DNA of 64,000 nt from Nitrospinales bacterium (GTDB taxonomy: Bacteria > Nitrospinota > Nitrospinia > Nitrospinales > VA-1), in assembly GCA_965223795.1 (NCBI GenBank), contig CBDCXL010000002.1, forward strand, positions 2,308,030-2,372,029. Reading direction: 5' to 3'. Of this stretch, positions 48,132 to 64,000 are shown piece after piece (the stretch's first letter is position 1; every line of letters starts with the position of its first letter). The notes under the pieces were generated by a model that saw only the letters and a list, made by a program, of their open reading frames with translations, was not told where the DNA came from and made no database searches. Made by a program: the position numbers and the translations under genes.

Positions 48132-48139
48132 TATAAAAC

Positions 48140-48176
48140 AATGGCTTGTGGGTGTGTCCCATGAGCCATTTTTTAT
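48140..48176 (+). terminator. Rho-independent terminator after tRNA-Lys
   Basis: The hairpin AATGGCT...AGCCATT has inner TGGG/CCCA pairing and is followed by TTTTT. Confidence 0.6.
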
Positions 48177-48680
48177 TTAATAAGGCTATAATAAGGTTTG
48201 TTCGTGGGTCTCTATCATGGCTCATAGTAGGAACTTCGGACTGGTGATCTAACTATAAAACGTATTGGCATTCTTCAAATATGCGAACTCGTTTTCAATT
48301 CCTTTGCCTTCTTTGTCATAAATTTGGCTAGTTCCTTATTAAATAAAACTGTCCAAAGGTAATTGTCGGGATGATCGAGAAAATTCATTCCTTGATCGAA
48401 CTGTGTCGATAGAGACTCAGAGGGATTGGACAGTGGCGGCTTGATTAGTTCACAAAAGAAAGAGGGGGGGGTATGCCCCAAAATCAGGAGTGGATCGTGA
48501 GGGTTGGTGGCTCAGAAATTTTTTAATTTTTTTTATTTTTTGACTTTTTGGCCCAGGTGGCATTAGAGATGAGACTATTTCCAATGGTCTACTTTTGGCG
48601 AAGGTGGAGCAGTGGCCGCACGTTGTAGGTTGGTTCCAAGCTCAGGTCTGATGACCTGCCCCTGTTATTTGTACCAGTTT

Positions 48681-49597
48681 CTAAGTTAGAGTTTCGACTT
48701 TTTGGGGGAGATAGGTTTCCGGAGCTGGAGGCCGGTATCCCAAGGCACTATGAGGTCGAAACCGGTTATATTCCACCCGTCATCGCTCGATGAGCACTTG
48801 CGCCTCCCGAAGCGTGGTGAAGACTTCTCCATTTAACAGCTCATCTCGGAGCTTTCCATTGAACGATTCATTGTAGCCATTCTCCCAGGGGCTGCCTGGT
48901 TCGATAAATAAGGTCTGCACTCCCAATCCTTCCAGCCAGGATCGAACTGCTTTTGCAGTGAACTCCGGTCCATTGTCCGAACGGTTTGAGTGCGAAAGGG
49001 AAACTTTTTAATAAAATAATCGACAAAGTCGATTGCGTTTTCCTGCTTTAGTCTTTCGTATATTTTTAAAGCTCGAACTCGAGCGGCATCATCAACAGCG
49101 GTATATTAGAAATGTGTGATCTTTGTGCAATAAGATTAAGGGAAGATGAGGAATTTTACATCTACTTGGATGTGATGGCCTGGGACCTGTTTCTCATAAC
49201 GAACCGTCTGGATTGTGCGCCTTTTGGCATTTTGGGGCAATCGATTGAATCCGTGCCGTTTCAAAGTACGATAAACGCCACTTCCAGAAACAGTGATGTC
49301 ATGGTAACGCTTTAAATACCAAGTAATCCGATCAGGCCCCAAGTGATAGGTTTTTCTGATATGAAGGATCTTTTCCTCGACTTCAACTGGCATTCGGAGA
49401 GTAGGGTTTTCAGGTCAGGGTTTTTTATTAATCAATCCTTCTTCGCCAAATAATTCATAAGCATTTCTCCACAGATAAAAAACAGCCCGTAAAATCCCAA
49501 AGTAACGGCAGGTTTTTCTGATATTCCCAATCTTCTTGGCATGATTTAGAACCCTAAGCTTCCTTTGAATATCTCGCTTGGCTTTGCTCATCCCCAT
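48681..49597 (-). mobile_element. Decayed DDE (rve/integrase-core) transposase gene, IS481-like N-terminus, multiple frame breaks and an in-frame stop
   Basis: Four segments lie in different frames:
- an HTH part, MSKAKRDIQRKLRVLNHAKKIGNIRKTCRYFGI (49415..49597);
- VEEKILHIRKTYHLGPDRITWYLKRYHDITVS...RYEKQVPGHHIQVDVKFL (49136..49393);
- [37 protein letters not shown] (~48995..49100);
- [87 protein letters not shown] (48681..~48990).

In the last segment TGA replaces the expected Trp codon. Confidence 0.75.
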
Positions 49598-62900: not shown

Positions 62901-63775
62901 AAGTGCTTTCTCTGATTCGTTCACCCGAGCCCACCGTCGAAGATAAAATACAAGGGTATGAACAAAAGCTGCGTGGAAAGGACAAATCGCGTTTCAGCGA
63001 CTTGGTGAGGCGCATCGATTTTAATGAAGATTACCGAGGGAAATTTGCACGTGAAATTTACGAGTTGATTCGTTTCCAAAATGCAAAATACGCCGAGGAA
63101 TTCGTCAACTTCGTTCAAAGGGTGTTCCTGATCGACACCGATCAGTTCCCCGCAAACCGGCTTGTCCTGACAAAGACCGTGGCGGATCATTTGTATGATG
63201 TCATGGCTTACAAAGACGAGTACCGGGTGGCCGATCTGTTGACCCGCCCTGAAGAAATTCAAAAAATACTGGATTCGTATGAAGACGGGGAGGTGGTCAA
63301 AATTCGATTCCTTTTGCGGCCTCCCATTCTCGAACATTTTCCCTGGATCAAAGACCTTAAATTTGTCAGAGATAAATTTGAAAAAGATGATAAATGGGAA
63401 GTGCCCGGATGGATGCTGACTATCCTCAGGCACTTTAAGTTTCTGCGTGGAACGGCATTCGATGTTTTGGCCTGGGGAAATGCAACCAGAATCGAAGAAA
63501 AAAAGGCGATCTCAATATACAGGCAAAGAATGGAAGGAATTCTCGCTCTATTGAATGACTCTAATTACGAGGCTGCCTGTGCTGCTGCCACTTATCCGAG
63601 CCTCGCCACGGGTTATGAAACGGTGAAGAAGAAGCACAGTCAGGTCGCTGAAGCGTTTTGGAGCAAAAAATGGACTGAGCTTGAAAACAGCGTTCAACTT
63701 CCTGGCGGGAATGATAAGAACTCCAATCGACACCGCCGATCGGAATCCTCGCTCTCCAGCGCGAATCCAGAATGA
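59912..63775 (+). CDS. Fused indolepyruvate:ferredoxin oxidoreductase-family protein (IorA-IorB-like 2-oxoacid:ferredoxin oxidoreductase, 1,287 aa)
   Basis: The N-terminal pattern RYLGTKGKIHLTGIQALVRLPFD...ISGYEGSPLGGLD is typical of single-polypeptide IOR-family proteins. The ferredoxin-type clusters are CENCGDCGLKAKC and CIQDFGCAKGECP. An IorB-like nucleotide-binding segment, IYSVGIGGWGLMT, is also present. Confidence 0.85.
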   Translation: MGKLPQNRLQNKKRGPAATTPNMFLQKNRFSLEEERYLGTKGKIHLTGIQALVRLPFDNLRLLQTIFPKKKFAYFISGYEGSPLGGLDINLRKMYSLLKEWNIIHLPGGNEEAGANMVWGSQLHRLFGSAKVDGVIGAWYGKGPGVRRISDVEDHMQMAGLDKFCAAYFMSGDDHTSKSSTTPHQTDYVHFANQVPTAYPGNIQEILDIGKKATLASMISGLAVNLKVETFVCDGSQEFILDPHEDLELAEKFTAFLEEHADYKRHFSPVLLKPRVLENEEELFYSKLPMLKEISKQFKFDIWKNRKLKSEFGIVATGKSYYDLMGALTQMGILEEEVEIYKPMFVWPPDTDSFREFIRGKKQIIVIEEKRSFFENHIKNEFFNDTNRPAVIGKYDENGNVLFRQNSNFDADYIVHVLGGILARKDQFKDRHIERIVDEKEKLNHVSIPEELTVKRPPAYCSGCQHRTALEISGHDNEKGTSESILVENKDLDGNRVQVEISPKHLMGIGIGCSTMAIIDSLASNRAIVVGPMASEGLLWMGASVFSFRTHADQGCGDGTYFHSARLNISFIRDAIEHLKVHYDIDDTHQTLLYVDNSVVAMTGGQRPIGQDDPETAISSIKKEGIENIALVAEYPEEFKHLKKKYGIETYHKSDTLRVKEEFSNKSGLSVIWYVQKCGIEKVRERKRHQELAPRMRVHVNTEVCENCGDCGLKAKCASVWQTDTEFGPKVRIHEYSCIQDFGCAKGECPSYVNIYTRSGNPYKKVDLDKLSLRDEDLPDPNREIHPDKIFKIYSVGIGGWGLMTAYEILARAASIEGMHVVKEDDTGLSQKGGEVRNSLKISYKNKKLIEGFKIEAGGADLYMCSDLIGAVNPENLKETSRKKTKAIINTEKIPTMPMIVGKDTFPDPEALKKIVTDHTRKGKNIFVNATEIVEGLFKDFKPTNLFLLGVAFQGIKDFPVKYAKNIENAIFLNGVDVEKNIQAFRYGRLYEFAPEKVLSLIRSPEPTVEDKIQGYEQKLRGKDKSRFSDLVRRIDFNEDYRGKFAREIYELIRFQNAKYAEEFVNFVQRVFLIDTDQFPANRLVLTKTVADHLYDVMAYKDEYRVADLLTRPEEIQKILDSYEDGEVVKIRFLLRPPILEHFPWIKDLKFVRDKFEKDDKWEVPGWMLTILRHFKFLRGTAFDVLAWGNATRIEEKKAISIYRQRMEGILALLNDSNYEAACAAATYPSLATGYETVKKKHSQVAEAFWSKKWTELENSVQLPGGNDKNSNRHRRSESSLSSANPE

Positions 63776-63781
63776 TTCGCT

Positions 63782-64000
63782 TCATGACAATTCAATCACG
63801 TTCTCATACACTCCCAATCTGACCTGCAACCCGTTCTCCACACTACGAGATGAAGGCACCGTGAATCTCCCCGTCCGGGTAAAAGAAAGCATAGCGCCGA
63901 AATTCACATAGCCGTCATCGGGGTAAACAACGCTGCAATTTTTGATCAGTTCGCCCACACTGTTTTTCGGTCCCTTGAGAACGGGTGCCTGCTTCCTTTT
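63782..64000 (-). CDS. 3' end of an unidentified ORF entering from beyond the window
   Basis: I translated the minus frame by hand. It is open from 64000 to TGA at 63782-63784 (...KGPKNSVGELIKNCSVVYPDDGYVNFGAMLSFTRTGRFTVPSSRSVENGLQVRLGVYENVIELS). It is not in the ORF track because no start lies in the window. It converges on the IOR-family gene. Confidence 0.35.
   Translation of the reverse strand, partial: KRKQAPVLKGPKNSVGELIKNCSVVYPDDGYVNFGAMLSFTRTGRFTVPSSRSVENGLQVRLGVYENVIELS

Follow-up and report, generated by a model that had tools for sequence, protein, structure and literature searches.

Predicted acyl-CoA and propionyl-CoA catabolic genes of atypical composition beside tRNA-Lys, a variable site in Nitrospinaceae genomes

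The analyzed DNA (hereafter, the window) comprises 64,000 nucleotides from a Nitrospinales bacterium (assembly GCA_965223795.1, contig CBDCXL010000002.1, positions 2,308,030 to 2,372,029), and the subject of this study is the block of genes that follows its tRNA-Lys gene. The tRNA-Lys (anticodon CTT; 48056-48131, plus strand), found by ARAGORN as the sole tRNA in the window, is the final conserved core gene ahead of a variable region, and it is also present in the five related loci at which we compared this site (L002, L003, L005, L014, and L015). The peroxiredoxin (Prx) gene just upstream of tRNA-Lys, for which the matches listed are all at least 89% identical, one of them at 100%, places the host in the Nitrospinaceae. 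The block itself consists of eight complete metabolic genes and the 3′ end of a ninth, preceded by AT-rich non-coding DNA and a decayed insertion sequence (IS) transposase. A preliminary description of this DNA, made from the sequence alone, had proposed a likely genomic island containing a cluster of eight to nine metabolic genes with codons richer in A and T than those of the core; both the gene count and the codon bias were recovered here.

The block genes are organized into two divergent operons, prpD-prpB-prpC-B12/MeaB-mutase on the minus strand and ACAD-thiolase-IOR on the plus strand, where ACAD stands for acyl-CoA dehydrogenase and IOR for indolepyruvate:ferredoxin oxidoreductase. The minus-strand operon encodes the 458-aa 2-methylcitrate dehydratase PrpD (54753-56129; PrpD models up to 1.8e-67), the methylisocitrate lyase PrpB (53894-54751; TIGR02317 prpB, 2.9e-88), and a PrpC-like 2-methylcitrate synthase/citrate synthase II (52720-53919; TIGR01800, 3e-86). 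The prpBCD set is complete and adjacent; all three products score under the respective equivalog cut-offs, so these predicted functions are assigned at the family level. The start of PrpD agrees with a database protein, P0241, of 458 aa and 100% identity, and the alignment with the homolog from another Nitrospinota contig (L007, see below) begins at residue 51 of the open reading frame (ORF); the longer prpD ORF, which extends up to 56279, is probably not translated.

The remaining two genes of this operon encode a 421-aa fusion of a B12-binding domain with a MeaB-like G-protein chaperone (51391-52656, minus strand; Pfam B12-binding and MeaB), and a 580-aa large substrate-binding subunit of an IcmF-type isobutyryl-CoA mutase (49662-51404, minus strand; Pfam MM_CoA_mutase, 1.8e-104). 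The former corresponds to the N-terminal two thirds of IcmF, and its gene overlaps that of the large subunit by 14 nt. For both genes the best-scoring NCBIfam model is IcmF, of which they cover positions 11-365 and 512-1075, respectively; both score under the IcmF equivalog cut-off, each spanning part of the model only. In the alignment of the large subunit with PDB 4XC6, the Phe of 'TRIFAG' and the Gln of 'DAQN' fall at chain residues 618 and 762, which we take to be substrate-specificity sites that are occupied by Tyr and Arg in methylmalonyl-CoA mutase. The model fit together with the Phe/Gln pair identifies the two genes as a predicted split IcmF-type isobutyryl-CoA mutase. They share with the IcmF of PDB 4XC6 the B12-binding domain, the MeaB-like GTPase, the mutase barrel, and Phe/Gln at the two specificity positions; however, IcmF is fused, whereas the block version consists of two overlapping genes (421 aa and 580 aa) that fall outside the fused equivalog, and its activity is a prediction. 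Methylmalonyl-CoA mutase was also considered and ruled out, by the bit scores (432.6 for IcmF versus 306.5) and by the Phe/Gln residues; the Pfam label MM_CoA_mutase of the large-subunit gene is thus replaced by the split IcmF assignment. The same split was found in every Nitrospinota homolog seen (L007, L009, L011, and L013), and annotations of 'methylmalonyl-CoA mutase' in Nitrospinota genomes may be mis-assignments.

The plus-strand operon starts divergently from prpD with a gene for a long, 650-aa ACAD (56448-58400; Pfam), which is followed by an acetyl-CoA C-acyl/acetyltransferase (thiolase; 58625-59851; Pfam and NCBIfam) with its true start probably near 58667, and by a 1287-aa fused IOR-family protein containing POR and DUF6537 domains (59912-63775; NF009589, 6.6e-245), which is a predicted 2-oxoacid:ferredoxin oxidoreductase. 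The ninth gene is represented by the 216 nt of its 3′ end (63785-64000, minus strand), which in a tblastn comparison match residues 233-292 of a 292-aa L007 protein with 55% identity over 60 aa (E = 1e-21). Since that protein is encoded after IOR in L007, the collinearity with L007 carries on past position 64000. Judging from the domains, the IOR-family oxidoreductase would convert 2-oxoacids to acyl-CoAs, the split IcmF would isomerize isobutyryl-CoA to butyryl-CoA, and ACAD and thiolase, probably with hydratase/dehydrogenase genes located beyond the window as they are in L007, would carry out beta-oxidation; PrpC, PrpD, and PrpB would then convert propionyl-CoA to pyruvate and succinate.

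The composition of the window changes at tRNA-Lys. The G+C content is 0.579 in 1-48131 versus 0.500 in 48132-64000, with 0.429 in the filler part (48132-49661) and 0.508 in the gene cluster (49662-64000), and the step at 47-49 kb is visible in the 2-kb G+C profile. For the codon comparison, 20 upstream genes with Pfam support were used as the core set. The median G+C content at third codon positions (GC3) is 0.796 in the core genes (n = 20) versus 0.599 in the block genes (n = 8, range 0.578-0.634; Mann-Whitney p = 4.3e-5), a uniform shortfall of about 0.2 that is seen in all eight block genes against 19 of the 20 core genes. The leave-one-out codon-usage distances to the core are 0.36-0.49 for the block genes and 0.15-0.36, with one outlier, for the core genes, and every 4-kb segment of the block has a tetranucleotide L1 distance of 0.242-0.325 from the core, against a maximum of 0.227 among the core segments. 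The change in composition is real and lies well outside chance. The abrupt shift downstream of tRNA-Lys that was reported in the preliminary description is therefore upheld by the G+C, GC3, codon, and tetranucleotide measures alike, and its hand counts of single 60-nt lines (40/60 G+C at 40081 and 29/60 at 50101) are exact.

The tRNA-Lys gene is followed by its intrinsic-terminator-like hairpin and T-run (48140-48178, plus strand), for which the terminator scan gave a 13-pair stem at 48140-48170 and the tail TTTTATTT. This hairpin is conserved in L002, L003, and L015. Homology to the window extends to position 48174 in L002 and to 48180 in L015, i.e., 43-49 nt beyond the tRNA and across the hairpin, and a four-way alignment retains the hairpin and T-run in the window, L002, and L003, with full divergence afterwards. 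The predicted terminator belongs to the conserved core, and the synteny break is located at about 48175-48180, just 3′ of it. Because the shared homology runs through the terminator, the proximal junction does not lie inside the tRNA 3′ end; thus, an integrase crossover within the tRNA did not generate the proximal end. The window lacks the attL within the tRNA that marks a classical island; L014, by contrast, diverges right at the tRNA end. A search of the 64-kb window for a second copy of the 25-nt tRNA 3′ half (at most three mismatches) matched only the tRNA itself, and the visible 15.9 kb of the block contain nothing resembling an att repeat. The region 48132-64000 likewise contains no integrase (tyrosine or serine recombinase), as the preliminary description had observed, and no remnant of one, and the sole mobility gene there is a pseudogene of a DDE transposase; a Pfam scan (E ≤ 1) of eight stop-free fragments from 48132-48700 returned no matches.

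The DNA between the terminator and this pseudogene (48179-48689) is AT-rich non-coding filler with a G+C content of about 0.37-0.52 in 200-bp steps. Six-frame translation and Pfam revealed no recognizable ORF in it, and blastn and tblastx detected no likeness to the variable sides of the relatives. In the repeat analysis, a perfect 15-nt inverted repeat, formed by 48171-48185 (TTTTATTTAATAAGG) and 48334-48348 (CCTTATTAAATAAAA), encloses 178 bp and begins exactly at the end of the homology with the relatives; it could represent the ends of a miniature element or a chance occurrence in AT-rich DNA. The decayed DDE transposase, placed at 48681-49597 in the preliminary description, was found at 48690-49596 (minus strand) as an IS481/IS3-like pseudogene with HTH_28/HTH_32, rve, and rve_3 (DDE) domains, broken by three in-frame stops and one frameshift. 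The reconstructed 304-aa transposase matches rve_3 at 4.5e-28, rve at 7e-11, and HTH_32 at 3e-10.

On the core side, all five relatives share the gene order of the window, from flagellin through RmlC, SDR, a transglutaminase-like protein, Prx, and a small ORF to tRNA-Lys, and none of them has the block at this site; each carries other, lower-GC cargo instead. The closest relative, L002, is a 3.37-Mb contig with about 80% nucleotide identity and 76-97% amino acid identity on core genes; its collinearity with the window spans 36.5 kb to 48174, past which the two are unrelated. The L002 cargo (locus positions 1-8985) includes an MMPL transporter, which is of the MMPL/RND type, a TP_0789-like protein, and a molybdopterin oxidoreductase of 1029 aa that runs off the locus, with GC3 values of 0.47-0.69 versus 0.71-0.85 in its core. 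The L003 locus (GCA_021604505.1) encodes small ORFs, ferritin, a sigma-54 activator, and cbb3 oxidase; L005, from a JGI metagenome, encodes a NACHT protein, a DEAD helicase, AlpA, and a DUF87 protein. The L014 and L015 loci are two contigs of the same assembly (ENA ERZ25072490), of which the former carries a DnaE-like polymerase, AlpA, and Replic_Relax, and the latter carries unannotated ORFs. In this pair from a single sample, the core sides share 98.6% identity, and divergence sets in exactly at the tRNA-Lys 3′ end (position 9046 in L014 and 5656 in L015).

Thus, six genomes have six different contents after Prx, the small ORF, and tRNA-Lys, and in all six the variable side is 3-10 points lower in G+C than the core side. 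L005 and L014 form the sole pair with similar variable sides, the AlpA region of L014 being 72-82% identical in nucleotide sequence to the L005 cargo; otherwise, the variable sides of the five relatives show no resemblance to the block or among themselves in nucleotide or translated comparisons. A search of L005 and L014 for further copies of their respective tRNA ends matched the tRNAs alone, and there was no attR or integrase within the 9 kb examined. The occurrence of a different lower-GC cargo in each relative after a shared core marks tRNA-Lys as a hotspot. It is a genuine hotspot for foreign DNA in this family, at least a part of the cargoes resembles integrative elements, and a family of such elements appears to target tRNA-Lys in the Nitrospinaceae. 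The synteny check near tRNA-Lys that was suggested in the preliminary description therefore yielded a shared core side in five relatives and the block in none. Two short-read contigs from relatives, L006 and L004, stop just before or at the tRNA-Lys position, which fits assemblies that break at a variable or repeated site; L004 is short and has the gene content of L003.

The best matches of the block proteins are all within Nitrospinota. The 650-aa ACAD has about 20 relatives with at least 45% identity, of which all the named ones are from Nitrospinota, and the next identity is 37%; for PrpD, about 80 relatives were found, with identities of 59-77%. The corresponding clusters show two gene orders. 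In type A (the window, L007, L011/L012, and L008), the order is IOR <- thiolase <- ACAD | prpD-B-C-B12/MeaB-mutase, whereas type B (N. watsonii 347, represented by L009/L010, and L013) has prpD-B-C-B12/MeaB-mutase -> <- thiolase <- IOR and lacks the long ACAD. The amino acid identities to the block proteins are 68-80% for L011, 70-79% for L008, 63-76% for L007, 59-77% for L013, and 59-74% for N. watsonii. L007 is a circular 3.09-Mb contig with a G+C content of 0.495, and its cluster looks native, there being no compositional difference between it and the flanking DNA; the G+C content of the L011/L012 and L008 contigs is 0.43. The GC3 values of the type A relatives are 0.41-0.63, compared with 0.60 for the block and 0.80 for its host, so that the block is intermediate, as expected from the partial amelioration of an imported segment. 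In contrast, the prp/icm cluster of N. watsonii has a host-typical GC3 of 0.75-0.79. No core gene is common to the window and the L007 or L009 locus. The best-hit comparison proposed in the preliminary description accordingly located the nearest homologs with the same gene order in low-GC Nitrospinota.

The prpBCD genes have been reported in Nitrospina gracilis and 'Ca. Nitromaritima' (PMC8026999, PMC5029188), and prpBCD or propionyl-CoA genes are patchily distributed in Nitrospinota (PMC8026999, PMC10839748). The window PrpD shares 69% identity with a PrpD cluster to which N. gracilis 3/211, another N. gracilis genome, and Nitrospina sp. 32_T5 belong, and an origin of the window from N. gracilis was rejected on this ground. 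On the neighbor-joining tree of PrpD, the window sequence groups with that of L011 at 81% bootstrap support, and a separate clade contains the cultured Nitrospina. A scan of JGI metagenomes with the mutase large subunit yielded six loci, all with at most 81% identity and thus no closer donor. The type B clusters have neighbors of their own. In N. watsonii 347 (OX336137.1; L009 1-9344), the cluster adjoins CobS, CobU, CobD, CbiA, CobO, and a TonB-dependent receptor, and this linkage to cobalamin salvage and uptake, which is not in the window version, suits a B12-dependent mutase. The L013 cluster adjoins homogentisate-pathway genes; L013 stems from the same sequencing run (DRR328264) as L004, and its PrpD is the protein annotated in that metagenome-assembled genome.

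We consider it probable that a type A cluster was acquired by a high-GC Nitrospinaceae lineage from lower-GC Nitrospinota and placed in the flexible region at tRNA-Lys, in an old event that has since been partly ameliorated. The cargo donor would probably be a lower-GC member of the same phylum with the type A gene order, and the cargo would have arrived in a region that has been repeatedly replaced or re-filled in the Nitrospinaceae; the block would extend from about 48175 to beyond 64000, with the decayed IS transposase marking its border. The shift of GC3 part-way to that of the host and the decay of the bordering IS indicate that the event is not recent. Several observations weigh against this reading. 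The visible 15.9 kb contain no integrase, att direct repeat, or distal boundary, and insertion as a discrete unit is thus hypothetical. The nearest known homologs are just 68-81% identical, so that either the donor has yet to be sampled or the transfer took place long ago. The data suggest, rather than prove, incongruence between the trees of the block and the core, and the deep PrpD nodes have low bootstrap support (18-29%). The GC-normalized tetranucleotide signature of the block fits the host core (r = 0.93) better than L007 (r = 0.89). Finally, the PrpD search returned one copy from the 3.25-Mb contig of the window and none from the L002 contig, which favors acquisition, but the genome tags of its matches cover cluster representatives and may hide other members, which limits the inferred absence from L002.

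The tetranucleotide agreement with the host would be natural if the cluster were ancient and vertically inherited, lost or moved in the relatives, and brought to tRNA-Lys by an IS-mediated rearrangement, with another cause for its low GC3. The wide occurrence of prp/icm clusters in Nitrospinota, the confinement of all best matches to this phylum, and the broadly alike identities (59-77%) to the L007, L013, and N. watsonii versions point the same way. We nevertheless regard this history as improbable, because the GC3 shortfall extends to all eight block genes although the N. watsonii counterparts are host-typical, and because the gene order and the extra 650-aa ACAD are those of low-GC lineages and not of the cultured high-GC Nitrospina. 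The pairing of the window PrpD with L011 is a further argument, as is the fact that none of the five relatives has the cluster at this site and that the closest one apparently lacks it genome-wide. A chimeric assembly in which a high-GC Nitrospinaceae genome and a mid-GC Nitrospinota genome were fused close to the tRNA or the IS would produce the same abrupt change of composition at that point; the assembly appears to be of the metagenome type, and the block proteins resemble those of other Nitrospinota. However, the junction lies in unique, non-conserved sequence past the terminator and not in a shared repeat, and the IS is a decayed single copy. Moreover, Prx, ACAD, and PrpD all map to a single 3,250,952-bp contig, whose length is typical of complete genomes in this family, and the GC3 of the block exceeds that of all but one gene of the same-order relatives, which fits a stay in a high-GC host. 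An assembly artifact is hence very hard to credit.

A classical island or element that targets the tRNA through an integrase, with its recombinase and attR located past 64000, is unlikely, although somewhat less so than the two preceding alternatives. The relatives use tRNA-Lys in that way, as seen from the divergence point of L014/L015 and the AlpA cargo of L014 and L005, and the block adjoins the tRNA, has atypical composition and an IS remnant, and has its distal end out of view. Yet the tRNA is followed by a terminator shared with L002, L003, and L015, with homology up to 48174-48180 and no attL in the tRNA, the window has no repeat of the tRNA 3′ half, and the filler has no integrase remnant. 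The cargo is purely metabolic, without excisionase, relaxase, or conjugation genes, and resembles ordinary chromosomal loci in L007 and L011. The island signature that the preliminary description had read from the tRNA 3′ end, the IS remnant, and the compositional shift therefore stands as regards a foreign accessory block at a tRNA-linked hotspot, and does not stand as regards the classical mechanism. Two outcomes named beforehand as speaking against an island were not obtained: the composition differs significantly, and the cluster is next to the tRNA in none of the five relatives. Returning to acquisition from lower-GC Nitrospinota, we suggest only tentatively a more specific course, a xenologous displacement in which this lineage lost a type B prp/icm module and regained a type A module with the 650-aa ACAD from low-GC Nitrospinota at tRNA-Lys. 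The cultured Nitrospina have the type B version, in keeping with the composition of their own genomes, and the closest relative of the window seems to be without the cluster entirely. If such a displacement took place, the use of propionate and branched-chain substrates would be a traded trait of the flexible genome in supposed obligate chemolithoautotrophs.

Islands adjacent to tRNA genes and flexible hotspots are well known in bacterial genomes. With the classical tRNA islands, the block shares tRNA adjacency, atypical G+C content and codon usage, sporadic distribution, and a border IS remnant, and the same tRNA-Lys is used by the AlpA-bearing elements in L005 and L014; unlike them, it has no visible integrase, flanking direct repeats, or excision and transfer genes, and its junction lies past the terminator. 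The flexible islands of marine bacteria, such as the tRNA-flanked ones of Prochlorococcus, hold differing cargo at one site, often with decayed or absent mobility genes. The block resembles them in its site, which is bounded by a conserved tRNA and has a different atypical cargo per genome; however, those islands usually carry surface, defense, or stress genes, whereas the block is one coherent catabolic cluster with chromosomal homologs across the phylum. Similarly to the prpBCD loci of N. gracilis and 'Ca. Nitromaritima' and the enterobacterial prpBCDE, the block has adjacent prpB, prpC, and prpD with the same predicted role in the oxidation of propionyl-CoA to pyruvate and succinate. It differs from N. 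gracilis and N. watsonii by a PrpD that is 69-70% identical, another gene order, the extra 650-aa ACAD, foreign composition, and location at tRNA-Lys rather than, as in N. watsonii, at cobalamin-salvage genes; prpE and prpR are absent from the visible part of the block. The block represents no new kind of element or mechanism; it is a well-supported, ordinary genomic island.

The Nitrospinaceae, the main marine nitrite oxidizers, are commonly regarded as obligate chemolithoautotrophs. In this group, a complete module for the breakdown of 2-oxoacids, branched-chain acyl-CoAs, and propionyl-CoA appears to have moved between Nitrospinota lineages to a tRNA-Lys hotspot, and the locus provides a concrete explanation for the patchy propionyl-CoA genes, namely, that the module belongs to the flexible genome. 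While prpBCD in N. gracilis and patchy propionyl-CoA catabolism in Nitrospinota have been published (PMC8026999, PMC5029188, PMC10839748), the compositionally foreign type A module at the tRNA-Lys hotspot of a Nitrospinaceae genome, the family-wide variability of this hotspot, and the recognition of the 'methylmalonyl-CoA mutase' as a split IcmF-type enzyme are new. These results are of use for work on the pangenome and niche differentiation of marine nitrifiers, in which tRNA-Lys(CTT) is a spot to look for strain-specific cargo of the Nitrospinaceae.

Several observations concern the core side of the window. The transglutaminase-like neighbor protein, compared with GTDB representative genomes, had only a 30%-identical match from Trichormus. 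The single flagellin gene of L002 matches the window three times, at 33618-34482, 35229-36086, and 36709-37566; two of the matches are intact tandem genes of 285 aa, and the stretch at 33.6-34.5 kb lies inside an ORF without a Pfam match. The most atypical core-side gene encodes Peptidase_M74, a MepA-like murein endopeptidase (14520-15230, plus strand), and adjoins a two-component system. It has a G+C content of 0.446, a GC3 of 0.51, and a codon-usage distance of 0.59, which is beyond that of every block gene, and it is probably a separate single-gene acquisition.

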